From positions 29,698,001-29,762,000 of the forward strand of contig OX597827.1 of assembly GCA_951406725.2 (NCBI GenBank): a DNA stretch of 64,000 nt, read 5' to 3'. The translations under genes were made by a program, and so were the position numbers. Below are positions 2,662-59,726 of this stretch, piece after piece. The notes under the pieces were generated by a model. That model saw nothing but the letters and a program-made list of their open reading frames with translations, searched no databases and was not told where the DNA came from. This stretch comes from Octopus vulgaris. Lineage: Eukaryota. Position 1 is the stretch's first letter, and each line of letters begins with the position of its first letter.

Positions 2662-2762
<101 letters not shown>

Positions 2763-2799
2763 TAAATGAAGGAATGGAGTCGAACGATGATGTTAACAC

Positions 2800-2895
2800 A
2801 ATTCCTCTCGACACATGTTTCGAAGACAGCATGTTTTCATTCCAAAAGAATAAAGGGTGCATTATGCAATCTTCTCATCAGGAAAGAAAGGGAGC
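2800..2895 (-). ncRNA. Type I hammerhead ribozyme in the inverted pLTR copy
   Basis: Reverse complement of the 5565-5661 motif: CUGAUGA-GAAGA...UCUUC-GAAAC-AUGU-GUC. Confidence 0.8.
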
Positions 2896-3082
2896 CTCTC
2901 TCGACAACAGGACAAACAAAAATTTCGATGATTGCCTACATGGTAAACAAAGCGATAATGAGTGTTTTTTTAAAAAAACCGTTAGAAGAATTGACGTCAA
3001 AAATAGATAGTAGGAAGAGAAGGGATAAAGTAATAATAGGTAGGGAACAGTATGTTTGCTGTATGCATGGGAATGTGTGGCT

Positions 3083-4440
3083 GTGAAACTAAGCAGATTA
3101 TGGAGACTTATTGATTACAGATGAAGACGGAACCATTGAACCCTAGGCAACCCAGATTCATCTTAAAGGACCATAAACAGAACTTTCATACTAACCCAGC
3201 ATTGCGGCTCATATGCGCTTCCAGTTCAGACATCGGTACCCTTAGTAAATACATATTAGATAAGTATATCCCTATATTAATTAATAAATTAAAACTTAGC
3301 TTATGGTCCAATTCTGTTCAAGTCGTAGATTGGTTTACTTCTATTACTGATAAGGCCAACACTAAATTTATCCAATTCGATATATCTAGTTTCTATTCTT
3401 CAATCAACCCTATTATACTTAATATGCCCTATGGCACGCACACAATAAGGCAGGCCTCTCCAGGGAGGAAGTTAGTGTGATATTGACTGCTAGGAAATCT
3501 TTCATCCAGTCCGATAGCAAGTTGTGGGTCCGTAGAGACACCCCTAATGCGTTTGATGTACTAATGGGAAGTACAGACAGCGCCCAGATAGCCGATTTGG
3601 TCGGAATTTATATTCTTTATGAAATGGCCGACCAATTCCCGGACATCTGTGGAGGTCTTTATCGCGACGATTGTCTGCTTTACCTCCAAAACGTTTCGAA
3701 CCAAAAAATACAGGTTAAGAACAGATTAGTTAGGTTTTTTAGTAGAATGAGCTTGCGCATAGTTTTGACGATGAATTAACTAAAGCCAACTTCTTAGACA
3801 TTACCCTCAATCTGCAGAATAACTCATACTTCCCTTATCATAAACCTTCCACTAATCTTAAGTATATCAGCATTTTCAGTAATCATGCCAAGCCAATTAC
3901 CGATAATTTAGTTAAAAACATATCTCTGAGACTGTCCAAATTATCTGCTAATGTCGACATCTTTAACCAAAAGGCAGACTTCTATAACGCCGCCTTGTCA
4001 AGAGCCGGTTATAAGGAGAAAGTGTCATACATCAACCCAGTTCATTCTAAACCAACATCTGCTTCTCCAATAGTAAAGTTACTCGTAATAGGAATAAAGA
4101 TTTCAATTCTAATAGTGCCAGCAACCCTGTACATAAGATAAATTCTTTACGGACTAGGGGAGGTAAGCGCCATGCAACCCCAAATTTCCAACCCAGAAAT
4201 TTTCCCCTTACTATCACAAATAACACTAAGAACAATTCAAAGGCCACAAAAAACTGTATCTGGTTTGTAATACCTTTCGGAAAAGAAATTAAATCGAACC
4301 TTCCCTTACAGTTCCGTGAAGCCGTTGCTAGGAACTTTCCCAGAAATTCTAGATATTATTCTATTATCAATTCCCACAAGGTCAGAATAGCTTTCTCTAA
4401 CACTAGGAATCTTTCACAAATTCTTGCTAATTCCAAACCA
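3083..4440 (+). pseudogene. Penelope-type reverse transcriptase, frameshifted
   Basis: PLE RT motifs across three frames: FILKDHKQNF, LRLI, FIQFDISSFYSSI, FDVLMGS-D-AQIADLVG, GGLYRDD, followed by NFLDITLNL, PYHKP and SNH. Confidence 0.9.
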
Positions 4441-4707
4441 TCATACAATCATAATAATAAGAATAGTATTAATAGTAGCAGCATTAGTAGCAGCGAAAGT
4501 GTTAATAATGATAATATTAATAATAATATTAGTCGTGTTAATAACAATGGTAGTGTTGATGGTAACAACAATAACGGTATTATTGTCGGTGGTATTACTG
4601 ATTGTAATACCATTAATAATACTAATAATAATAGAAATAGTGTAGTTGTTAGCGCTAATAATAATAGTAACAACAATCATAACAAAAAAAACTTCGTCTC
4701 GATCTCG

Positions 4708-5124
4708 GTGGACAACCCCAACAGAATTAAATTTTTGTCTAGTAATTCTAAGATTAAGAATTCTATTTACCAGTGTAGAATTTCTTCCGGTACCGATGTC
4801 TTCTTCTATATAGGAGCGTCCACTTCCAAGTTATCCAATAGAATTTCAAACCACTACTCAACATTCAGGGATAATAAAAAACGACATAGCACAGGGCTAA
4901 GTAAATTTGTTTGGCGTCTTAAAGACAACAATATAACTTTCAAGTTAGATTGGTTCATACTGTCTGTATCCTTTCCTTTTGATAAGGGCAGGAGATTTTG
5001 TAACATTTGTAACTCTGAACTCTTCCATATTCTTTTCTCTAAGATTCCCCTAGTAAACACACTCATAGAAAAATCGTACAAATGTAAGCACTGGCAGAAA
5101 CACACTTTCTACTCATATAAATGA
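4708..5124 (+). pseudogene. GIY-YIG endonuclease domain of the PLE ORF (C-terminal, after an Asn-rich (AAT)n-like linker)
   Basis: SIYQC...FYIG...R..NH..TF...STGLSKFVWRLK...CNICNSE...LVN...KCKH. Confidence 0.9.
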
Positions 5125-5564
5125 TAACGATAGTCACTGTGGTTTGAACGATTAGCTTTACGTCCACCCCACTGCTATAGAGAAATTCTTTTCTAAGCCT
5201 TCGAACATTCTTTCAATCAACGTACCCTTCCCTCTCCACTTGTTCCTTTATACCTTCTCTTCCTACTATCTATCTTTGACGTCTGTCTCTCTCTCTCTCA
5301 CACACAATCACACACACATACACAAATGCAGTTATACACACACACACAAACACACGTACTCATTAACACAAGCACACACCCACACATTTCCATGCATACA
5401 GCAAACATACTGTTCCCTACCTATTATTACTTTATCCCTTCTCTTCCTACTATCCATTTTTGACGTCAATTCTTCTAACGGTTTTTTTTTTAAAAACACT
5501 CATTATCGCTTTGTTTACCATGTAGGCAATCATCGAAATTTTTGTTTGTCTTGTCGAGAGAAAC

Positions 5565-5661
5565 TCCCTTTCTTTCCTGATGAGAAGATTGCATAATGCA
5601 CCCTTTATTCCTTTGGAATGAAAACATGCTGTCTTCGAAACATGTGTCGAGAGTAAAGGAA
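5565..5661 (+). ncRNA. Type I hammerhead ribozyme in the 3' pLTR; predicted cleavage after GUC at ~5648
   Basis: CTGATGA core; stem II GAAGA-TTGCAT...ATGC-TG-TCTTC; GAAAC-ATGT-GTC; stem I ctttc with gagag. Confidence 0.85.
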
Positions 5662-5857
5662 TTTTGTTAACATCTTCGTTCGACTCCATTCTTTCATTTA
5701 TTCATATACAACACACAAATTTCTACACATGAACCCGGAGTTTCTACCCTTGACAGGTCGCTTCAACCGTGTTTTCTGACGTGAATTTGCTACCCAGGTT
5801 TCGGTTAAACGAATTTTCAATGCCGACGATAAACATAGGATAATTCATTCACCTACT

Positions 5858-5916
<59 letters not shown>

Positions 5917-9850: not shown

Positions 9851-9855
<5 letters not shown>

Positions 9856-10960
9856 AGATAAGAAAATGGAGAAATGCATCTAAATCAAATATCAATTACC
9901 AGATAATACTCAATCACATACTTTATTAAACCACCACATAAGAGACTGTAGGGTTAAATATAAAAAGCAGAACAAATCAGTGTACATAAAGGAATGTACA
10001 TAAAAAAGTGTACATAAAAGTGTAATGTTGTATGATAAGTAGAATATATATAAAAGAGAATATAAATATAAGTAAATATAAATATAAGTATAGATTACAT
10101 CTTACAGCTGTTTCGGCCATGTAGATAAGTATGTCTCATTTTACCAATATTAGCGTTTTATGGTAGGTCAATATATAGATATAAATGAGACATTTACAAA
10201 AATATCATAAGGCCTCTTCGGAGATTATGTAATATAAATCAGTCTTCATATATACCTACATGGGTGTGGGTACATACCCATAATACAACATATACATATA
10301 CATATGAGTGCATATACTCACACTCCTATACATATAAAAATATACATATACATAATGATATAAATAAATAATATAAATTAGTAAACATATATATGTGTTC
10401 CACATTCAACGTCTCAGTTTTTCGACTTATATTTATATTCTCTTTTATATATATTCTACTTATTATACAACATTACTCTTTTATGTACACTTTTTTATGT
10501 ACATTCCTTTATGTACATTGATTTGTTCTGCTTTTTATATTTAACCCTACAGTCTCTTATGTGGTGGTTTAATAAAGTATGTGATTGAGTATTATCTGGT
10601 AATTGATATTTGATTTAGATGTATTTCTCCATTTTCTTATCTTGTATTAGTAATTTGTGGTAGCAAGTATATCCAAAGGTAATGCAGTACGATCATTTCA
10701 TGCAACTCCATTTAATTTAAGAATGCAATCATTACTTAATTAAATTCTGTGTCTTTGTGCAGCTGAGGATTACTCTGCATTTTAAATTGATGTAAGGATT
10801 ACATTGTTCAATTAAATGGAGTTGCATGAAATGATCTTACTGCATTACCTCTGGATAACCTTGTTGGTTATTTTGATTTTAATCACCTTACTTTTAAATT
10901 GTATGGGTAATACCGTACTAAATTCTGGTGCCCCAAATTAAGTACCATATTCATCTGAAT
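9851..10960 (+). mobile_element. Non-coding fold-back element: inverted arm 9851-10072, sense arm 10425-10647, structured tail 10648-10960, within (TA)n
   Basis: ~220-bp near-perfect inverted repeat; HHR on the minus strand just inside the left arm; long hairpin in the tail. Confidence 0.85.
10095..10232 (-). ncRNA. Type I hammerhead ribozyme with ~100-nt stem II (CCGAAGA core variant)
   Basis: Minus strand: uuacauaaucu-CCGAAGA-GGCC...augucucauuu...aaaugagacau...GGCC-GAAAC-AGCU-GUA-agauguaau. Confidence 0.8.
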
Positions 10961-11437
10961 ATATATATATATAGGCGCAGGAATGGTAAGTGGCTTGCCT
11001 ACCAGCCACATGGCACCTTGGACAAATGTCTTCTACTATTGCATCGGGTTGAGCAGAGCTTTGTGAGTGGATTTGGTAGACGGTAACTGAAAGAAGCCAG
11101 TCGTGTGTGTGCGTGTCTACCATCGCTGGACAACCGGTGTTGGTGTGTTTACATCCCTGTAACTTAACGGTTCGGCAAAAGGTCCGATAGAATAAGTACT
11201 AGGCTTATTCTACTCCTAAAGTCGATTTGCTCGACAAAATGGCGGTGCTCCAGCTTGGCTGCATGCGAATGACTGAAACAAATAAAAGAATAAAAGAATA
11301 TATATACACATACGTGCGTGCCTACAAATGAACGTTCATTTATACACACATTCAAATACACATATACTTATACATACGTTGGCACATACATATATACATA
11401 TATATATATGCAATACCTTCATGCATTTATGCACACC

Positions 11438-11502: not shown

Positions 11503-11899
11503 GCGCAGAAGTAACTGTGTGGTAAGTAGCTTGCTAACCAACCACATGGTTCCGGGTTCAGTCCCACTGCGTGGCGTCTTGGGCAAGTATCTTCTGCTAT
11601 AGCCCCGGGCCGACCAATGCCTTGTGAGTGGATTTGGTAGACGGAAAGTGAAAGAAGCCTGTCGTATATATGTATATATATATGTGTGTGTGTGTGTAGG
11701 TTTGTGTGTGTGTTTGTCCCCCTAGCATTGCTTGACAACCGATGCTGGTGTGTTTACGTCCCTGTCACTTAGCGGTTCGGCAAAAGAGACCGATATAATA
11801 AGTACTGGGCTTACAAAGAATAAGTCCCAGGGTCGATTTGCTCGACTAAAGGCGGTGCTCCAGCATGGCCGCAGTCAAATGACTGAAACAAGTAAAAGA

Positions 11900-12110: not shown

Positions 12111-12359
12111 CATACATATATATACATATATATATATATATATACATACATATATATATATACATCTACATATACATGTATAGAAGTGGCTGTGTAGTAC
12201 GTAACTTAATTACCGACCACATGGTTCCGGGCTCTGTTCTACTGCAGAGCACCTTCAGCAAGTGTCTTCTAGTATAGCCTCAGGCCGAGTAAAGATTTGT
12301 GAGTGGATTTGATAGACGGAAACTAAAAGAAGCCAGTCGTATGTGTGTGTGTGTGTGTG

Positions 12360-12392
<33 letters not shown>

Positions 12393-15404: not shown

Positions 15405-16232
15405 ATGCCTCCACCAAATTTGGAGGTGGTCTAAAGAATGGGACCTGTGTCTGAACGTGTCAAAGTGCTGTCATCTGCCTGTTGGCTCTCCTCCTGCAAC
15501 TCAACTTGATTTGGAGCCGGGTCGTCTGCTGCTGGAGAGGACCGATCAGGTAAAGGACCTGGGTATCTTGGTGGATTCCTCCTTTTCGCTTTCGGCCCAG
15601 TGCGTCCATGCTGCCAACAAAGCACGCGGAATTCTGTTCTTGATTCGACGGTCATTCGGAATGCTCACAGCAGCCATATTCCTACCACTCTATGTCACGC
15701 TGGTGAGACCCATATTGGAATACAGGATTCAAGCCTCTTCTCCTTATCTCCTCAAAGACATACAGCATCTCGAAAGAGTCCAGAAGCTGGCTACCCGCAT
15801 GGTTCATGGTCTCAAAAATTTGTCCTATGAAGAAAGGCTGAGGACGCTCGACCTTTATTCTCTAGAAAACGCCGCCGCCGTGGTGATCTCATTCTCGCCC
15901 ACAGCATCATAAGCGGAAAGTGTAACCTCTTGAAAGAGCTGTTCTTCACTCCTGCTCCAAAGCGTCGGCTGCGGGGTCATTCCGAAAAGCTCTACCTGCG
16001 ACGATTTCATCTCAATCGAAGGAGAGGAGCTTTCTCCGTCCGGGTTGCGGATCCGTGGAACAAGCTGCCAGACGAGATGGTGAAGATGCCGACGACCGCT
16101 TTGTTCAAAGCCTCCCTTGACCTCAAGTGGCCTGAACTCTTTACATGAACACCACCCTGTACTTAACTCCATGTCCCCCAACATGGCCTTGCTATTTGCT
16201 TTTGAGCCAAATTAACTAACTAACTAACTAAC
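15405..16232 (+). mobile_element. 5'-truncated CR1-type LINE, same family as 50027-54287, inserted in a family 1 SINE
   Basis: Nearly identical to the ORF2 C-terminus and 3' UTR of the long copy; (TAAC)n tail; SINE halves on both sides. Confidence 0.93.
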
Positions 16233-25508: not shown

Positions 25509-28500
25509 CTATAAGGCCCCGCAGCTTTCCTTTCCTCTTCTACATCCATAGTTAAACTGGGTTTCTGACACCCACCTTTTTCGCCACTTCCTTCCATCTT
25601 TTTTCATACACACCTCGTGGTAAGGTCTCCTTTCCAGCCCCATTTTGCTCTTCAGATGATATCGGAAGTAAGTGAGCAAGCCGGGGCCCGAGACAAAGGA
25701 TCCTATTGCGACTCCTTCCATTCTTGTACGCCACATGCATTCTTTTACTACTGCAACCGTGCAGTGAAAACATGCCTCACCTTCCTTCGAGAGTCCAGTT
25801 GGCGGTATCATCTTAATCATAGACTCATAGACTCGTCCCAGATGCGATAACACGTGTTCTGCGTAACTTATCAAGTCTGACAACTGCCGACAGTGTACAA
25901 AAGCGTGCTGGACGGTTTCATCGTCCAACCCGCATCTTGGACATGTCGGTGGCACTGAAATTCCGTGCCGCGATAACTTCTCGCGAACAGGTAAAGCATT
26001 CCTATAACACTGCCAGGCCAGGGATCTTTGGAAATTATCCAAATACCCCGTCCTGAAAGTCTTTTTAAACAGGTTGGTAAGCTGGTCTTCGTCGAACCCC
26101 AGAGCCCCTCCTAGGACGTCGTCGTTCTTTGCCTCTACCAGCCTGCTATAAAATACCGAGGTGGTATTTCCGCAGCCGGCCTTGCCCGCCTTGTGGATCA
26201 GCGTGAGTGCCTGTCGACACTCCTTTTGCCATAAAGTCAGATTCCGTCTTTTGAGGTAACCGGGTTTAAAATTCACCAAGGAAGCCGGTCTCAGGAAAAA
26301 TTCCCCTGCCAGCGGACTCCACACCTTATCACCTTCCAGGTGGTGCCAGAGATGCTTCAGCCTCAGCGCATGTCTGCGCATCATCAACCAAGGCATTCCT
26401 AACCCACCCTTTAACGGTTCCTGGCAGCAAACGGAGCGCCTCACAAGTGGCTTTCCTCCCTTCCACAAAAAGCAGAAAAGGATTCGCTCCAACTTGCTAA
26501 GCCATGAATCGGGGCAAGGGACAACGGTCAGGCGGTAAGTGATTACAGATGCAATAAACATCTGTACCACCTCCGCCCTTCCTTTTAAGGACAGAAACCT
26601 TCCGGACCAGGTCCGTACTATGGCCTCCACCTTGCCCGTCACCTCACTCCAATTCCTCTCCGTTTGGGAGTCTGGCCCAAACCAAACTCCTAGCAACTTA
26701 ACAGGACCATCTGTCCAGTGTCCCACGGCACTGGACGAAATCGACTTGCTCCTCCAGGTGCCGAGGCGCAAGCCAATCGACTTGTCCTTGTTAACTTTTG
26801 CTCCTGCCACCGCCTCGTATCCTCTGATAGCATCTTCTACACAAGGTAGCTGAGCCTCATTGGACACGATGAGGGTGACGTCATCCGCATAAGCAGAAAC
26901 CGTCCTCCTGCCTCCGATCTCATCCGGGTTACTTCCCAGCCTCTCCAACTTTCGCAGCAATGGCTCGAGAGCCAACACGTACAAAAGTGGTGACAAGGGG
27001 CACCCTTGACGAACTGAACATTCGATCGAAAACGGTTCCGTTAGGTAACCGTTTATCTGGACGGTGGACTTGATGCGGCTATACATTGCGGAGATCCACC
27101 CGCGAAATTCAGGGCCCAGTCCAGCCGCTTCGAGGACCGTCGCCAGGTACTTATGGTCTACCCTATCGAACGCTTTACTTTGGTCTAAATGGACCATTAC
27201 CCCGCCCTTGCCGGTTAATTTACCCACCCTATCTAAGGTGTAGCGTATAAAGTGAAGATTGTCCTGGATCGACCTGTCTGGAATTGCACATGTCTGTGCT
27301 TTCCCTACAAGTTTCTCCACGACAGTCGTCAACCTTTTTGCCAACACCTTGGCCAAAATCTTTAACTCTACATTAAGTAGACTTATGGGCCTGTAATTAC
27401 TAATGTTATCCCCCTTGCTCGGGTCTTTCTGGATTAGCGTCACCACTCCCCGGCTTACAGAACTGGGAATTCTCCCGTTCTGCTGCCAGTTCGCGTAGAC
27501 GCCTGCCAGTATTCCCCCGAACAAGTCCGGCATACTTTGATAAAACTCGTAGGGCAGACCATCCAGCCCCGGCGACTTCTCCCCGGCGCATCCGGCCAGT
27601 ACCCCCTCTATCTCCGCGGGAGTGATCGCTCCTTCACAGCACTCCACCTCACGCCCCGAGAGCCGCGGTCCGCCGGCTAGGAAGTCCTTTAAGGCCCTCC
27701 CCCGCTCCAGCGAACCACCACTCCCGAACGCGCGGGCGAAATGCTGGTGAAGAAACTTTTGCATCTCCTCCTGTCCATAGATCTTGTATCCCTGTTCGTC
27801 AGTTAAAGACTTGATTGAAGCTTTGTTGCCTCTCTGACTCTCCACTCGACGGGCCCATCCAGCAACGTTAATACCTTCTCGTTTCCCTGCGCGTAGCTTA
27901 GCTCTAACTCTGCAACCTTCGTGTTTGGAGTTAAGGTGATGGTACAATACCGTCCATGCTGCCATCACTCCGGATGCAGAGCCAGATTCCATTGCCTCGT
28001 TTAGATTCTTAACTAAATCGTCCTCTATCCTAGACCTATCTAACCTTAGCTGATTGCTAAATCTAATGGACTCTGAACGAATGGCTCTTTTGAGGGAGTG
28101 CTACCATCTATTGTTAATGATGGTGCCACATAATGCCCTCTGTACTAACACCTTAATCCGAGTACGGAAGTCTTAACAATTCAAAATAGACTTGTTCAGC
28201 TTCCAGTACCCGGGTCCCTGTCTATGACATTTATCTAATTGCACCCTACAAGTCACAAATTTGTGATCCGTGTAAGGCACAATGTGAAACTGTGGACAAC
28301 TAAACGTATCCTTATCTCTTTTCCTAACGAATATCCTATCTATATACGATCTGCGTGAGCTGTCGTTGTTACACCACGTCCACTGTGGAACGCTCGGCTC
28401 ATCCAGTCGATAACGGTCTACTAGATTAAAGCTCTCTAGTAGACCCTTGAGGCTAGGGTTCCCCTTCCTATTGGTTGAGCCAACACTGTCGACCTGCGCT

Positions 28501-28931
28501 TCGAGGACAGTGTTAAAGTCCCCTACTAAGACTACCGTTTTCGACGTCACTAAAAAGTGCTCCAGATTCCGAAAAAAACCCGACTGCCTATTCTCATTCG
28601 GAGCGTAGACAGCTACCAACCTGAGGGACTGTTTACTTACGTGGGTCACATCCAGAATGACCAGCCTGCCTTCTGGGTCCAGAAAGACAGTACTTACCTG
28701 CAAGTCCAAGCTCTTCCTGATAAAGACTGCCACGCCCCTTCCTCCTCCTCGGCTAGGAGAAATAAATTTCTCGAAACCATTAAGAAGAGGCGAGAACGCT
28801 TGGGCCCCGTTCATCTTGGACTCGATTACAATAGCTACGTCCACTCCGTGTGTCGTGAGGTCGTTCAGGAGACAAATTTGTTTCGATTTCGACCCCATTC
28901 CACGCACATTCACACAACCCAGCTTTGCCAT
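25509..28931 (-). pseudogene. Tx1/L1 ORF2 (AP endonuclease, reverse transcriptase, zinc finger) with in-frame stops near 28173 and 28102
   Basis: GCVNVRG, VGDFN, YIDRIF, YTDH, GYWKLN; KSPGLDG, NYRPISLLN, DQSKAFDRV, VRQGCPLSP, AYADD; CPRC..HAFVHC. Both ORF segments are in the same frame. Confidence 0.93.
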
Positions 28932-29006
28932 TGTCGGAGAGAGAGAGAAAAAATAAACTTACGGTTGGGACAGGGAGCATGACAGTTTAAATCTGCATGC
29001 TTCCCC

Positions 29007-30395
29007 TTATTCCTCCCTTGTGGTCGTAGCTGCAGGGCTCTTAACCGGCGTTGCCATCGGGCTCTGGGTAGGTGTGGTTGCCGGGGTTATAGTAAGTTTA
29101 CCCTCCAGTATTTCGTTAGTAACGTCTCTGATAAGGTTATTTTTAAAATGTTCTTGGAGTGTTTTTTCCTTCCACTCGTCTTCCTTTATTTTTGCAAAAC
29201 GAGTGGTCGACTTAGTGTCTGCAGACTTACTGAATAATTTCAGTTTTGAAAATTTAAAATACTTGAACACTCTATCATTTTTCTCGTCGAATGCTACAAC
29301 CCTTTCATTTTTTTTAATCAATTTTTTCAATCTTGTTTTATGGGGAGGGGCTTGGCGAACTGTGTTCCAATGAATACAGTGCCGTGGGGGTAGGGCTGCG
29401 GAATTTGTTTTGTATGTATCTCTGCGGTGTTTGCTGATTTTTTCTTTGTTTGGGGAGGGGAGTCCAGGGTATTTTCTTTTTTTCTTTTGTGTGTCACCTG
29501 TGTAAATTCCATTTGTTCATTTTTATCTTCCGTTTCGATTCCCTTCCTTGTCACAGTCTTGGGGTCTTTTTCCGCCTTTTCTTTTTCTGTGTTTGAAGCA
29601 CTTTGAGGAGGGGCTTCGCTGTTTTTCTTTTTTTTTAATGCAGTTCGAGCGGACGTGACCCTTTTCACCACATTTGAAACACCTAGGTCTGCGCCCCTCC
29701 ACTGACACTCTCATTGTAATTCCCTCCTCAATAAATACCCTATCGGGTAAGTTTTCTAGCACATTATTTTCTGCTTGAACGAGGAGTTCGAGCGCTTGTC
29801 CCTTCCAGTTTACCTCCTCTTTCCTTTTCATCTGCAGAATTGAGACTTTCTGCTCTACGTCGTGCAGAACCGCCGCTGCTACCCACATTATATCATATCC
29901 TCTTGGAATGTCTTCCACATATAGTTTCGCAGTTCTTTTTCCCATATATGTAGGTAGTAACATGATGTCCTCACTTTTTAAGGTCATCGATGAAATCTCT
30001 CTTGCCACATCAGCCGAGTCGAAATGTGCTTCAACGGTAGCGCTGCGGGCACCTCGACCGACGTAGCGAATTTTGCTCCACACTGGGGACAAGCACTTCT
30101 CTACTATTTCGTTGTTCACGTCCATTATTTTTTTCTCTTTGTTACTGTAAACCTTGTATACGACTGCCTTAGCCTTTATTTCCTGTAATATCGCTTGCGG
30201 CGGTACCAGTTTAATTTCGTTGCCTTCCTTTTTTACCAAGTTCCGGTATTCGAACAACTGTTCTATTTTAAATTCTATTTCCGTTATGGTTCCGCCCACT
30301 GCGGCTGAAAAAGACTGTTTTTTAACCTCGATATCCTTCTGTTCGCCTTTTCCCATCACGGGAAAGTCGCTCCTCGACGCCAAGTCGAACTCCAT
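29007..30395 (-). pseudogene. Tx1 ORF1 (gag-like zinc knuckle), frameshifted
   Basis: EGRRPRCFKCGEKGHVRSNC; three overlapping ORF segments upstream of ORF2. Confidence 0.85.
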
Positions 30396-30836
30396 TTCTC
30401 AAATTATGAGAACCAATTTTTCAATAAAAAAAATTACCCCGAAGGTAATAACAATGTTTATACACAGAATTTTCAGCCCCGTAGGGCGAAAATTACTGTC
30501 ATACAACGGACAACTGTTCAATTCACGAGCAAACACAAACAACGACGAACAAAAAACGAACTCACTCAACAAAATAGGCAGCTAACTTCTCAAAACGCAG
30601 ATGAAAGAGGGGTCCCTAGACGAGTCAAAACACCGGTTTTCGATGAAGAGAGACCTGTTTGCAAATATCTATTTAATGTTTTCCCAGTAACCACTGTCAC
30701 TGATTTCGAAAAACTGTCTGCAAGCAATAATAAATCTCTGATAATAAATCTATATATATATACTATATAAATTAGCAAAAAACCACCCTTTATCAATTCA
30801 AGTTTGTTCAATGTAAGTTTGGAATAATATTATTAC

Positions 30837-45083: not shown

Positions 45084-45091
<8 letters not shown>

Positions 45092-45440
45092 GTTGTATAC
45101 TGTCAATCTAACACGAACGTGACAGTAGGGGGTCACCACTGCTGTTTAGCCCTAGGAAGCATCGACGCCTCCTGATGGCATTGACACATTTTTCCTGTGT
45201 CCTTATATACATTTACGAAGGGGAGACAAATATTTGTCTCCCCTTCGTAAATGTATATAAGGACACAGGAAAAATGTGTCGAAGCCAACAGGAGGCGTCG
45301 ATGCTTCCTAGGGCTAAACAGCGGTGGTGACCCCGCCCCCCTACTGTCACGTTCGTGTTAGATTGACAGTATACAACCATTCTATCGCCCCATCAACGTA
45401 CATGTCTCTACGAGAGATTTAGAAATTTAGTATTTCTGAT
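45084..45440 (+). mobile_element. Fold-back element forming a ~300-bp spacerless palindrome plus tail; same family as 59163-59698
   Basis: Arms 45084-45230 / 45232-45385 centred on ggagacaaatatttgtctcc; tail atgtctctacgagagatttagaaat. Confidence 0.9.
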
Positions 45441-45453
45441 ATATATATATATA

Positions 45454-45876
<423 letters not shown>

Positions 45877-45902
45877 AAAAAAGCAACAAGAATGGATTAA
45901 AA

Positions 45903-45989
45903 TCTCGGTACGATCGTTTCGTACGAGGACATCTTTAATAAGCTACAAAAAATGCAGTGAATACAGATGGCTCGTACTCGTCAGCCGAA
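45903..45989 (-). ncRNA. Type I hammerhead ribozyme, inverted copy
   Basis: Reverse complement of 46832-46917. Confidence 0.85.
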
Positions 45990-46831
45990 AAGACATCAGA
46001 GAATTCCCAAACATCAAAAGGGGTAGATACAAAAGAGGTTGTAAGATTAACTGCATTGAAGAAAGTTCGATTCATGGAGATCCGATGAAAGGTTTTAAAC
46101 TTATAGAATTTGTGCATGTCTACATATAGCTCATATTGAATTTTTAATCAAGTTGTGTGAAGAGATTTAGGGTACAATCATGCGAAAATATCAGGGAATC
46201 CGAATGAGAAGCAACTTGTGTCCATCCCCTTAGCTTCCCCTTTCCTTTCTCTTTGATAGCTTTAATAGCAGTAACTGATTAAATTCCACTTCCTTCCTCC
46301 TCTCTCTGTGATTCTTGTAAAGTTCATTAACAACCTGCACCTCTACAATATAAGACTGTCATTTTGCTTCTCATCCGGATTCCCTGATATTTTCGCATGA
46401 TTGTACCCTAAATCTCTTCACAAAACTGGATTATGAACTATAAGGACATGCACATATTCTGTAAGTTCAAGACTTTTTATCGGATCTCCAAGAATCGAAC
46501 TTATCTGCGATTCTTGTAAATTTCAATAACAATCTGTTCCTCTACACGATATGACAGTCACTTTGCTTTTACTCAGACTTTCCTCTACATGATAAGGCAG
46601 TCACTTTGCCTCTTACTCGGATTTTCAGAAATTTTGCATGACTGTATCCGAAAATTTCTTCACACAACTTGATTAAAAATTCAATATGAGCTATATGTAG
46701 ACATGCACAAATTCTATAAGTTTAAAACCTTTCATCGGATCTCCATGAATCGAACTTTCTTCAATGCAGTTAATCTTACAACCTCTTTTGTATCTACCCC
46801 TTTTGATGTTTGGGAATTCTCTGATGTTTTT

Positions 46832-46917
46832 TCGGCTGACGAGTACGAGTCATCTGTATTCACTGCATTTTTTGTAGCTTATTAAAGATGTCCTCGTACG
46901 AAACGATCGTACCGAGA
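46832..46917 (+). ncRNA. Type I hammerhead ribozyme with perfect core; predicted cleavage after GUA at 46911
   Basis: tcgg-CTGACGA-GTACGAG...CTCGTAC-GAAAC-GATC-GTA-ccga; palindromic stem III ACGATCGT. Confidence 0.9.
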
Positions 46918-47064
46918 TTTTAATCCATTCTTGTTGCTTTTTTCCTATTTGTAATCACCCCACTTGTCGTATGGGTAACACCATATAGATTTCCGGTGCA
47001 TCCTAGTTAAGGACCATATTCATGTGAATTCTTTAGAATTCACTTGAATCTCAATTACTTAACC

Positions 47065-47115
<51 letters not shown>

Positions 47116-50121: not shown

Positions 50122-53004
50122 TCATATAAAGAGTTCAGGACACTTGAGGTCAAGGGAGGCTTTGAACAAAGCGGTCGTCGGCATCTTCACCATCTCGTCT
50201 GGCAGCTTGTTCCACGGATCCGCAACCCGGACGGAGAAAGCTCCTCTCCGATTGAGATGAAATCGTCGCAGGTAGAGCTTTTCGGAATGACCCCGCAGCC
50301 GACGCTCTGGAGCAGGAGTGAAGAACAGCTCTTTCGAGAGGTTACACTTTCCGCTTATGATGCTGTGGGCGAGAATGAGATCACCACGGCGGCGGCGTTT
50401 TTCAAGAGAATAAAGGTCGAGCGTCCTCAGCCTTTCTTCGTAGGACAAATTTTTGAGACCATGAACCATGCGGGTAGCCAGCTTCTGGACTCTTTCGAGA
50501 TGCTGTATGTCTTTGAGGAGATAAGGAGAAGAGGCTTGAATCCCATACTCCAATATGGGTCTCACCAGCGTGACATAGAGTGGTAGGAATATGGCTGCTG
50601 TGAGCATTCCGAATGACCGTCGAATCAAGAACAGAATTCCGCGTGCTTTGTTGGCAGCATGGACGCACTGGGCCGAAGGCGAAAAGGAGGAATCCACCAA
50701 GATACCCAGGTCCTTTACCTGATCGGTCCTCTCCAGCAGCAGACGACCCGGCTCCAAATCAAGTTGAGTTGCAGGAGGAGAGCCAACAGGCAGATGACAG
50801 CACTTTGACACGTTCAGACACAGGTCCCAATCGTTAGACCACTTCCAAATTTGGTGGAGGCATCGACGAAGATCCTCTATATTACCGCGAGGAGCGACCA
50901 GTTTGATATCGTCGGCAAATAGAAGGGTGTGTTGCGTGAGGTCGTCGGGCAAGTCATTTATGAAGACTAAAAAGAACAAGGGCCCAAGCACTGAACCTTG
51001 AGGCACGCCACTGCTCGCACTGGAGACGTCGGACCGCGAACCATTAACTTGGACTTGGAAGGAGCGATCTGAGAGGAAGGCACCAACCCATCGTACAATA
51101 TCCGGATGGAAACTATATGCTTGAAGCTTGACAATTAATAGGCGGTGGTTTACCGAGTCAAAAGCTTTGGCAAAGTCCAATAAAACGATGTCAACAGCAT
51201 CACTATCATCGAGGATGCGCGTCACCAATTCTTCCATTACTAGTAAGTTGGTCAAGCATGATCTCTTCGGCACGAAACCGTGTTGGGAATCAGAGATAGA
51301 GGCTGTGTTTAGGAGGTGGAGCATCATACTTTTCTTAAGGATGGTTTCGAACATCTTGCTGATTATTGATGTAAGGGAAACCGGTCGGTAGTTAAGCGGG
51401 TCTTCGCGGCTCCCTTTCTTGAAAATTGGGCAGATTATCGCTGTTCTCCAGTCTGCAGGTATAACACCCGTCGCCAATGACATATTGAATAGTCGTGTTA
51501 AGGGCTCGCAGATGACCGGAGCCAACGCTTTGATAACCCGTGGGTGTATGCCGTCAGGGCCGTGACCCTTGTTGACATCGAGGCCTTGAATAACACGTTT
51601 GACTTCGTCCCGCGTGATGACCAATCGAAGCATTGGAGGTACCGATCTATCAACTGGAGGGGGTTCACGACCATCATCTTGTTTGAAAATAGTTGAAAAG
51701 GCCTCGGCAAATAATTGACTCTGTTGATAAGGGTCCTCAATCGATACGCCTGTTGAGTCTACCAACGTTGCAATCTGGTTGTTCAAGCGGGAATTCCGCT
51801 GGACATGGGCAAAGAAGGTTTTTGGATTGCTACTGGCATTTGCCGCGATTTTGTATTCATAACTGAAGCGTTCTTTCTTTTCAATTTTCACGGCTCGGTC
51901 TCGTTGAGTTTTGTACACCTCAAAAGCTGCAGTCGAATCCAGATTTTTGAATTCAGCCCCAGCAATATCTCTGAGTCGACGTTCTCGTTTAACCTTCTTC
52001 GTCACCCAGGGCTTGTGTTTCTTCTTGGGAAGCCCAACGGGAACTGCTTGGTCAGTCAAACAGATTACATATGCTTTGAGGGATGACCATAGTTCGTCAA
52101 CTGAGGACAACGTCATCAGGTATCGCCAGTCCAGAAGCGCGGAAGCCTCGGTTAGAATTTCAAGATTAATTGCAAAGAAGACTCTACGTGGCAGCGAAGT
52201 AGTCGTGGGCGTAGAAAAAGTTGTGTGCATGACGAACTTCAGGACCGCATGATCACTCTTGGCAAGAGGGGCGCACACAGATACGTCTGACACTGATCTT
52301 GGATAGTGGGAGAATACCAGATCTAGCATAGATGGCTGCTGCCCAGACCGATGCCTTGTCGGATATTCAACATGTTGCGATAGAAAACAATCTTCAGCCA
52401 CGTCAAGAAGGGCCTGGCCGAACCGGGAAGATGTTGTACAAATTGATGCGGGCCAATCGATCGTGGGAGCGTTGAAGTCTCCTACTACCAAACAGTCATG
52501 CGAAGCTGAAACGAATCTTATCGCTTCGAGTAAATGAGCATCGTCCTGGGGGTCGGCAAGAGGCGGCCTGTAGACAGCCAACACGGGCAGGCAAAACTCA
52601 GATAGGCTCAGCTTGCAATAGACGGCATCGAATTTTGTTGTAGGTTGAGCATTAGTGGGTAGAATACCGCTGGACGGTTTGTGCTCAGACTTAACATACA
52701 CAGCAACACCTCCACCTCGCCTTTTTCCTCTGTCACATCTGAAAAGAACGTAGCCCTGCAGGTGGATTTCTGAGTCCTTTACTGCTTGAGTCAGCCAAGT
52801 CTCGGTGATAGCTATCACATCAGGGGAGTCACGTATGGCCAGTGTAAATAGTTCACTGAACTTTGGGAATAAGGAGCACGAGTTGGTGTAGACGATGCTG
52901 AGCTGTGAAGTCTGAGGGGCGGGAGTTGGGGAACAAGCAGAATAAGGGGTATCAGAGATAGCATCGTTGACGGGGGTATCAAGTTCACTTCGATTTGCCC
53001 TCAC
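50122..53004 (-). CDS. LINE ORF2 protein: AP endonuclease plus reverse transcriptase, 960 codons, uninterrupted
   Basis: YTN, IAITETWL, VYRPP, VGDFN, SDH; GPDGIHP, NYRPVSLTS, QHGF, DFAKAFDSV, SGVPQGSVLGP, FADD, KDLG, LRGH. Confidence 0.95.
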   Translation of the reverse strand: MRANRSELDTPVNDAISDTPYSACSPTPAPQTSQLSIVYTNSCSLFPKFSELFTLAIRDSPDVIAITETWLTQAVKDSEIHLQGYVLFRCDRGKRRGGGVAVYVKSEHKPSSGILPTNAQPTTKFDAVYCKLSLSEFCLPVLAVYRPPLADPQDDAHLLEAIRFVSASHDCLVVGDFNAPTIDWPASICTTSSRFGQALLDVAEDCFLSQHVEYPTRHRSGQQPSMLDLVFSHYPRSVSDVSVCAPLAKSDHAVLKFVMHTTFSTPTTTSLPRRVFFAINLEILTEASALLDWRYLMTLSSVDELWSSLKAYVICLTDQAVPVGLPKKKHKPWVTKKVKRERRLRDIAGAEFKNLDSTAAFEVYKTQRDRAVKIEKKERFSYEYKIAANASSNPKTFFAHVQRNSRLNNQIATLVDSTGVSIEDPYQQSQLFAEAFSTIFKQDDGREPPPVDRSVPPMLRLVITRDEVKRVIQGLDVNKGHGPDGIHPRVIKALAPVICEPLTRLFNMSLATGVIPADWRTAIICPIFKKGSREDPLNYRPVSLTSIISKMFETILKKSMMLHLLNTASISDSQHGFVPKRSCLTNLLVMEELVTRILDDSDAVDIVLLDFAKAFDSVNHRLLIVKLQAYSFHPDIVRWVGAFLSDRSFQVQVNGSRSDVSSASSGVPQGSVLGPLFFLVFINDLPDDLTQHTLLFADDIKLVAPRGNIEDLRRCLHQIWKWSNDWDLCLNVSKCCHLPVGSPPATQLDLEPGRLLLERTDQVKDLGILVDSSFSPSAQCVHAANKARGILFLIRRSFGMLTAAIFLPLYVTLVRPILEYGIQASSPYLLKDIQHLERVQKLATRMVHGLKNLSYEERLRTLDLYSLEKRRRRGDLILAHSIISGKCNLSKELFFTPAPERRLRGHSEKLYLRRFHLNRRGAFSVRVADPWNKLPDEMVKMPTTALFKASLDLKCPELFI

Positions 53005-54090
53005 ATAACTTTCCCTGTCAGCACTACAGCATGGGACCAGAGGTAGGACTTGATTATCTGTCCATCTTGGATTCGTAAACCCTTCTCTCCCATTTGTTTC
53101 CTCATCTTTAGTTCGGATATTAGGTTTCTCCGGCGAATTCTCTCTCTTAGTGAGTATTCCTCGCGAAAACCCATATTGGGGTCCTCCCAGGCATGCGTCT
53201 GAGCTCTGTTCAAAAAGACTGAAGTCTCCCGATCGGAAGAAAAGATTACCCTTATTGGGCGTGGTCTAGTATCTGAGGTTGGGTTCGCTTGGAATCTTCC
53301 TAGCCGAGCGACCTTATGGACACTGACATTTTCGTTCACAGAGAACAATTCTCCAACTAAAATGGAAACAAAATTAATGCCATCTTTTAGGCGGTTTATG
53401 CCTGTATCACAGGTGGATTCAGCTTTACCATAAATTATTGCTGATCTTGAGTGGGCAAAATGTTCTCTACTATGAGCTGCGGTATTCGATTCTTCATTGG
53501 AAGATTTCGAAAGGGTGGTTTCATAGCCATCGGACTTATGTCGGCCTGTGGGGTCGATCGGAATGGGTTTAGTGGTCATAATTTTCCCGCCTGGTTTGGA
53601 ACTGCACTGCCTCTTCTTCGGTTTGGGGGAGCACCACTCCCCAGATGAACTCATATCGAGATCGTTCAGAATTGGTTGAGCAATGGCATTAATGGGAAGG
53701 ACAAGTGAGGGAGAATCCAAACAGATTTTATCGTGATCAGGTTTCATAGCTAAATCTGCCCCACTGGAGTTTTGACTACGTTTCTTCTTTTGGGGAGAAC
53801 AACGGTCTTCAGGAACGATCATGTGCAGAAACGACCGCCGGTTCCTTCGCCTTCTTTGGCCGCTTCGATTTTGTTCCCTTCGGATTGGACGTCTCCAGGG
53901 AAGAAATCAAGGGTGACTCTGCGTCAACAGGAGACTGTTTATTCAGTAAGAGAGCAACAACAGACTTTAGGTGCTCGACCTCTTGTTTGAGCAACAGCAA
54001 CTGCTCGTTGAGCTGACTATTGGTAGGACCATCATCTTGATGAGAAGCCCTTCTTGCAGATCTCAGTTTCGATCCGTAGGTAGCTGACAT
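53001..54090 (-). pseudogene. CR1-type ORF1 with one frameshift near 53815
   Basis: N-terminal coiled coil (LNEQLLLLKQEVEHLK); C-terminal RLGR...RPRPIRVIF...ERIRRRNLISELK..GEKGLRI, typical of CR1/L2 ORF1. Confidence 0.75.
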
Positions 54091-59162: not shown

Positions 59163-59698
59163 ATAGAATGGTTGTATACTGTCAATCTAACAAGAACGTG
59201 ACAGTAGGGGGTACACCACCGTTGTATAGCCCTAGGAGGCATCGAACGCCTCCTGACACCTTCGACACATTTTTTCCCTGTGTCCTTATATACATATACG
59301 AAGGGGAGACAAACACCCCCAACCGCCGGAACTGCATCTAGGGACACCGTGTTTCAGGATCATTGTCCTTCATCGGCCTAGAGTAGCAGACACCGGTCGG
59401 CTGGTGATATCTGTCTGGACTTCGTATCTGTATATATATAAACTCAGTGAAGTCTATTCACTGATTATCAAACACCCCCGGCAGTTGGGGGTGTTTGTCT
59501 CCCCTTCGTATATGTATATAAGGACACAGGGAAAAAATGTGTCGAAGCTGTCAGGAGGTGTTCGATGCCTCCTAGGGCTATACAACGGTGGTGTACCCCC
59601 TACTGTCACGTTCTTGTTAGATTGACAGTATACAACCATTCTATCGCCTCACCACCGTACATCTCTCTACGAGAGATTTAGAAATTCAATATTTCTTA
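59163..59698 (+). mobile_element. Fold-back element: arms 59163-59328 / 59478-59644, HHR in the spacer, short tail
   Basis: ~165-bp inverted repeat; homologous to 45084-45440; (TA)n flanks. Confidence 0.9.
59332..59389 (-). ncRNA. Type I hammerhead ribozyme (CCGAUGA core variant)
   Basis: cugc-uac-ucuagg-CCGAUGA-AGGA-caauga-UCCU-GAAACA-CGG-UGUC-ccuaga-u-gcag; all stems pair and stem I has an internal loop. Confidence 0.88.
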
Positions 59699-59726
59699 TA
59701 TATATATATATATATATATATATAGC

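Follow-up and report, generated by a model that had tools for sequence, protein, structure and literature searches.

The conserved 3' tail of Penelope-like elements in Octopus vulgaris as the predicted 5' half of a structured leader RNA

Two 5'-truncated, tail-out inverted insertions of Hydra-clade Penelope-like elements (PLEs) lie in (TA)n microsatellites within the window, a stretch of 64,000 nucleotides of the Octopus vulgaris genome (Table 1). In both, a hammerhead stands just upstream of the tail. The hammerhead of element 1 combines stem I (TGCAG/CTGCA) with the core blocks CTGAGGA (10763-10769) and GAAA (10828-10831), and carries two changes in stem III relative to most copies of its family. 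Its tail comprises CACC, hairpin 1 (10901-10918), GGTG, the TTAAGTACC strand (10938-10946) and hairpin 3 (10949-10960), stops ~20 nt before the usual long end of the family, and is followed by a shorter (TA)n at about 10960-10972. The CTTGTTG link of this element is the predicted 5' strand of an outer helix, judging from the pairing in related families. Element 2, whose 3' UTR holds a ~240-nt tandem duplication, has a hammerhead made of TCGG, CTGACGA (46836-46842), helix II GTACGAG/CTCGTAC and GAAAC-GATC-GTA; its tail is built from CACC (46956-46959), hairpin 1 (46969-46986), GGTG (46995-46998), a long-range strand (47005-47015) and hairpin 3 (47018-47049). The outer-helix 5' strand of element 2 has its predicted pairing partner in the start-codon region of full-length copies.

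Table 1. Features of the two tail-bearing insertions (positions in the window).
Feature	Position	Strand	Remark
Element 1, inverted tailless 5' stub (hammerhead 3' half and link)	10664..10757	-	limits approximate; palindrome 10664-10863, 80% identity
Element 1, minimal type I hammerhead	10758..10844	+	predicted cut after 10839
Element 1, CTTGTTG link and U-rich segment with short-end site	10859..10879	+	
Element 1, tail	10880..10960	+	77.8 bits
Element 2, inverted tailless copy with hammerhead, adjoining (TA)n	45867..46214	-	
Element 2, 5'-truncated 3' UTR of Hydra-type family	46215..46831	+	left limit approximate
Element 2, minimal type I hammerhead	46832..46915	+	predicted cut after 46911
Element 2, outer-helix 5' strand (46925-46936), then short-end site	46925..46951	+	
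Element 2, tail	46952..47065	+	long end 47065; 110.5 bits
(TA)n target microsatellite after element 2 long end	47066..47110	.	

The similarity that an earlier note had reported between 10880-10960 and 46952-47029 is borne out by a local alignment score of 81, where 5000 shuffles average 17.5 and reach 37 at most; away from the two sites, the tiles of the window stay at or below 39. Both copies stand, as described there, directly before a (TA)n tract in tail-out fold-backs. The elements themselves had been called unrelated, which does not hold, since upstream of both tails stand a hammerhead of type I and the link CTTGTTG; moreover, 10750-10879 and 46825-46951 give a weak but above-chance alignment (score 41, reached by 21 of 3000 shuffles). 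The true arm of element 1 is the palindrome listed in Table 1, and the long arms nearby belong to a different, neighbouring element. This separate fold-back (9851-10647; arms 9851-10073 and 10425-10647) adjoins element 1, shows no tail, and has a minus-strand hammerhead-like motif near 10110-10225 whose core reads CCGAAGA. An abundant SINE-like repeat, presumably akin to the octopus tRNA-derived SINEs that it resembles, occupies 10975-11290, 11503-11890 and 12186-12391 beside element 1.

Several other repeats populate the window. The fold-backs at 45084-45440 and 59163-59700 are members of a single family (87-90% alike), and on one side of each a short extension of its own precedes (TA)n. Positions 3067-5861 (+) hold a 5'-truncated Hydra-type element of another family, with RT and endonuclease (EN) 43-50% and 36% identical, respectively, to those of the motif group; it has its own hammerhead near 5576, a different tail of ~160 nt and an inverted tailless stub at about 2760-2890 (-). 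Near-intact ORF sets of non-LTR retrotransposons are found at 25509-30398 (-; 863 and 261 aa) and 50122-53906 (-; 1047 aa), and 15405-16232 is a truncated copy of the second set, 97-99% identical.

Genome-wide, a tight pattern for the motif has 254 exact matches in 2.8 Gb and a looser pattern 2,693, with none for the reversed controls. Downstream of all 30 tight-pattern loci examined, within ~35 nt, lies a microsatellite or, at one of them, further element sequence, and the inverted arms stop ~17 nt before the motif core (30 loci). Rfam returned nothing over the motif at gathering score, the one weak hit in the window being a tRNA elsewhere, and on four family loci searched to an E of 5 it gave only sub-threshold, repeat-driven matches in the flanks; the motif thus matches no Rfam family, twister, pistol, hatchet and HDV included, in line with the earlier note's by-eye comparison with those four. 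The motif is also present on autonomous PLEs, where that note had advised looking, linked upstream to RT/endonuclease ORFs: long copies of element 2's family lead to near-full and full RT and EN reading frames. Four loci (L140-L143) have open frames of 976-1091 aa, consisting of a single ORF with the RT followed by a C-terminal GIY-YIG-type EN. Their motifs, IRWRT or IRWKT and ADKTGN (DKT in place of DKG), match the Hydra-1_Obim alignment rows by eye, and the translations show a CxCX5C linker (CNCRIKSKC), CQLC and CIH/CVH near the C-terminus, with no CCHH; two ORF pieces of another locus (L102) found no match in Pfam. Judged by these ORF motifs, a canonical hammerhead close to the 3' end and insertion in (TA)n, the elements are Hydra-clade PLEs as defined in section 11 of PMC8557442. 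Hydra-1_Obim is another family, with another hammerhead. Element 1's family is tied to an ORF only indirectly: it is 75% identical over 208 nt to the end of the ORF-bearing family A, and a possibly colinear EN fragment at 50% identity occurs in 1 of 25 loci.

In the ORFs of L140-L143, long Asn-rich low-complexity inserts lie between RT thumb and EN and are in frame in young copies. Another abundant young PLE family (L032-L041, e.g. L033:625-4370) has a linker of CxxC type and, upstream, an additional overlapping ORF of ~495 aa without Pfam match; a 3'-end hammerhead scan found none in it. One candidate ORF partner, at L008, was rejected: it belongs to another PLE family, one with two ORFs, whose copy there is nested in the same TA tract and whose full-length copies lack the motif. 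A metagenome scan with the RT found no relative. A survey of sequencing runs listed no RNA run among the holders of the sequence. Contigs of four sequencing runs cover the hammerhead and tail and are uninformative on strand, ends and expression. At L102:7739-7779, one of these runs (X1, guessed to be RNA) differs by clusters of A>G and T>C that the three others lack, a pattern that A-to-I editing of fold-back RNA might have produced.

On the genomic sequence, the motif is an optional, one-sided 3' tail of related PLEs that continues into the next tandem unit. Among 30 loci picked by upstream sequence alone, about half stop at the link and about half are tailed; in a query-biased sample of 186 distinct ends, 114 are tailed, and 67 of the 72 tailless ends stop within 19 nt of the link. 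Inserted copies thus end just before the tail or at its end, always at a TA-type word. In element 2's family (family 2), 20 and 29 of 67 genomic ends fall at two positions, both in unpaired UA-rich segments of the RNA predicted below; another family has 6 and 8 of 18 ends at the same two segments, and older families have additional ends near hairpin 3. The two kinds of end are combined within insertions: of the 42 inverted pairs that lie tail-out no more than 3 kb apart (not counting ends that continue into the leader), 39 join one tailed and one tailless copy, 3 are tailless on both sides and none is tailed on both.

The tail is also conserved. Among six families its identity is 70-89% (95% for the closest pair), similar to that of the hammerhead and the EN. 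Between distant families, by contrast, the final 300 nt of the UTR are close to shuffle level, and at fourfold EN sites the match to family A is 9/23 to 12/27. Conservation far above that of the upstream UTR and the fourfold sites places the tail under constraint, not neutral shared ancestry. The earlier note's inference of a cis-acting RNA is supported: the tail is conserved where Penelope-like insertions have their 3' end, and it probably acts in cis.

The specific fold put forward in that note did not survive comparison. Its G of the 'conserved GUAA' is private to the window copies: among the 30 best copies per family, with the window copy included as the sole G, family 2 has U in 29/30 and family 1 A in 29/30. 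Clustering of 159 tails gave 25 clusters, 12 of them with two or more members. The two proposed helices have a pairing probability of 0.00 in 11 of 11 subfamily representatives folded, while a local hairpin (hairpin 1) reaches 0.94-1.0 in nine of the 11. On the tail alignment A1 the proposed fold shows no double changes and 389 of 500 shuffles do as well; on alignment A3 it pairs 89% of cells, matched by 251 of 500 shuffles. The helix pairing is broken in three subfamilies, and one young subfamily that changes a G-C of hairpin 1 to U-A has lost 3 of 4 pairs of the proposed inner helix. An alternative pairing with an upstream strand had also been suggested, and here the CACC at the tail start does pair, its partner being GGUG rather than the strand named. 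The 'UUAAG' taken to be unpaired is instead the 5' strand of a long helix of the tail and leader together: the note saw only the 5' half of the structure; the partners lie in the leader and are absent from the 3' ends of genomic copies. A local three-hairpin fold of the tail alone is predicted, and was set aside with non-significant covariation (78 of 500 shuffles); when the leader is folded along, longer helices replace its second hairpin, which perhaps exists only in transcripts that stop at the tail.

The leader becomes visible in tandem copies, which are ordered ORF, 3' UTR, hammerhead, link, tail, 58-nt leader, ATG. In six of the loci the upstream repeat continues past its tail, by way of the 58-nt leader, into the ATG. 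The leader pattern has 43 genomic matches, of which 30 were fetched and 22 retain the link; none of the 30 provides a leader for element 1's own family. The ATG agrees by eye with the published Hydra-1_Obim protein start, and no conserved GT splice donor is seen in the leader by eye. Folded together, tail and leader (206 nt) give a z of -7.13, with 0 of 200 shuffles as stable. In all 22 link-retaining loci the long helix, hairpin 4 and the outer helix over the AUG form with probabilities of 0.83-1.0; the z of these loci spans -0.7 to -9.6, two loci folding weakly (-0.7 and -1.7). RNAalifold, unaided, on 10 leaders chosen to span subfamilies returned six helices with 41 pairs. In this predicted fold the outer helix joins the link to the start-codon region, including the AUG in all 10 aligned leaders, and closes two domains. 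One consists of CACC/GGUG around hairpin 1; the other is a long helix of 9-13 bp that encloses hairpins 3 and 4 and whose AAGUA core pairs with UACUU of the leader. The segments that hold the two end sites are unpaired and UA-rich.

Over the 10 leaders 98.0% of cells in the six helices are paired (0 of 500 shuffles) and 4 pairs show double changes (7 of 500 shuffles), a test that is inflated by the relatedness of the rows and by deriving the fold from those same rows, the independent events being few. The double changes are likewise few and lineage-inherited, and that at columns 4/209 is one copy. Sense-strand changes to G-U occur in seven pairs, which points to RNA rather than DNA. Invariant columns number 106 of 211, comprising 64 of 86 paired and 42 of 125 unpaired columns. 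We conclude that the motif is the predicted 5' half of a conserved ~205-nt six-helix RNA made with the element's own leader.

A more distant group provides an out-of-sample comparison. Its pattern has 591 matches, its Hydra endonuclease is 45% identical (one locus), and it repeats the layout of a tailless inverted copy with a tailed one. Its tail is undetected by the nhmmer profile and by the covariance model R1, remains unaligned to the main group by MAFFT, and lacks CCATA. Two copies extend past the tail, and at these two loci, the whole of the distant leader evidence, a 12-13 bp complement to the tail strand has the same AAGUA core with changed flanks (0 and 2 of 3000 shuffles). The predicted topology repeats, with a z of only -1.36 for the leader of L342 and of -3.13 for a shorter copy. 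The long helix is therefore predicted to recur with other letters in the distant family.

Much of this anatomy has precedents. The Hydra clade described by Craig et al. (2021, PMC8557442) shares the ORF motifs (RWK-type, DKT, CxCX5C, CxxC, CxH), the (TA)n targets, the hammerhead near the 3' end, the tandem and inverted copies and the one-sided tail, itself described in that paper. The octopus families differ in their length of 950-1070 aa from the ATG, the Asn-rich inserts, a 3' UTR of 0.8-1.5 kb, a long helix II insert, and a tail of 95-115 nt (97-117 nt as measured in six families) as against the 30-40 bp given for a PLE 'tail'; the sections of PMC8557442 drawn on here hold no leader or tail structure. 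The upstream ribozyme resembles the minimal metazoan PLE hammerheads (Cervera and De la Pena 2014, PMC4209133) in its intact core and short palindromic helix III. It is a separate motif ~40 nt upstream of the tail, which itself lacks the hammerhead core (CUGANGA and GAAA on three helices) in all 12 subfamily rows. In the Poseidon element PAc of Anolis carolinensis (Frangieh et al. 2024, PMC11167929), the RT starts at two internal sites that bound the tail and requires RNA 3' of them; there the starts lie downstream of the hammerhead, as predicted for octopus, and the targets are AT-rich, as they are in octopus. The PAc starts are inside the ORF, in an AC-rich stem-loop (PMC11167929), while the octopus starts, inferred from genomic ends only, are placed in unpaired, UA-rich segments of a leader that is non-coding and whose six-helix fold has support across families. 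The element class, the hammerhead and the tail are already known. The R2 3' UTR, hepatitis B epsilon and telomerase RNA are structured RNAs that recruit an RT and present a short unpaired template, and epsilon also overlaps a start codon. The likeness to the tail and leader RNA is one of logic only, with no sequence or Rfam match; unlike those RNAs, the octopus fold would offer two segments at which copying starts, with cut (TA)n of the chromosome as primer. Beyond the three papers cited, the literature searched, which left subscription journals and Repbase outside, yielded none on the fold of a PLE leader or tail and no account of the present leader fold, and the RNA fold of the anole template in Figure S2C of PMC11167929 may bear on its novelty.

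We consider it probable that the tail is the 5' half of a predicted leader RNA serving as RT recognition and initiation site; 'RT recognition site' was one of the options in the earlier note and is the best reading of the tail here too. The predicted fold likely sets two places where copying into DNA starts, and perhaps also gates translation. The element protein would bind the fold on read-through RNA, its GIY-YIG domain would cut both strands of (TA)n, and the two unpaired segments would each take one of the cut ends as primer for copying upstream. Head-to-head joining of the two truncated cDNAs would then yield a tail-out fold-back with one tail, as is found twice in the window. We infer the protein binding, the priming of both cut (TA)n ends and the joining with the same better-than-even confidence. 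A bolder version, which we put forward tentatively and think rather less likely to be right than wrong, likens the leader to telomerase RNA: a single scaffold that docks the RT-endonuclease, hides the start codon and so turns translation to copying, and offers two unpaired UA loops to prime both cut (TA)n ends.

The fold can also be read as serving mainly to control translation, by a cap-independent entry site or an autoregulatory switch, with the ends merely marking accessible UAUA words. The hammerhead-cut RNA would begin ~10 nt before the AUG-sequestering outer helix, the AUG lies within that helix in every aligned leader and matches the Hydra-1_Obim protein start by eye, and PMC4209133 lists among its references a work on translation initiation linked to ribozymes in non-LTR elements. 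As the main role this is unlikely: alone it leaves the predominance of tailed and tailless pairs unexplained, and in the anole element hammerhead cleavage is dispensable and uncut RNA is the main substrate (PMC11167929). Translational control is nonetheless compatible with the recognition and initiation reading. The letters might also act in DNA, as an internal promoter or endonuclease site, the complementarity being a by-product of old inverted duplications, which these elements readily form. Half of all columns are invariant, and PMC11167929 suggests a promoter in the pLTR and relates that, in an earlier study, the endonuclease required the Penelope tail to recognise plasmid DNA; the sense-strand G-U changes, the greater invariance of paired columns and the long helix kept with other letters in the distant family make this improbable.

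That the tail is a new self-cleaving ribozyme or a 3' processing signal making the RNA end for copying, as the earlier note had also proposed, fits a conserved, structured sequence beside the junction without Rfam match. We regard it as very improbable, given that the supposedly conserved loop varies at its first base, the proposed fold is unsupported, half of the copies lack the tail, and the ends fall at TA-type words matching the target. Descent from a second, decayed hammerhead would account for a TATGG...AAGTA-CCATA frame like that of Penelope-4_HM and -13_HM (by eye; supplementary file S2 of PMC8557442). The catalytic core is absent, the pairing involved is the helix broken in three subfamilies, AAGUA is explained by leader pairing and CCATA is missing from the distant family, so that this origin is largely refuted as a current function and deserves next to no weight. 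No more credible is a functionless tail inherited neutrally by two families that are, after all, related throughout; the constraint on the tail refutes this at the family level, unless recent recombination swapped tails.

Penelope-like elements are the closest relatives of telomerase RT. One of them has been reconstituted in vitro (PMC11167929). The octopus families add a 205-nt RNA with natural compensatory variants, two predicted starts and young copies with intact ORFs, which make RNA recognition directly testable; the same material makes the origin of one-sided tails and inverted copies testable. The scaffold reading, if true, would explain why the class as a whole has a one-sided tail and inserts in inverted form.
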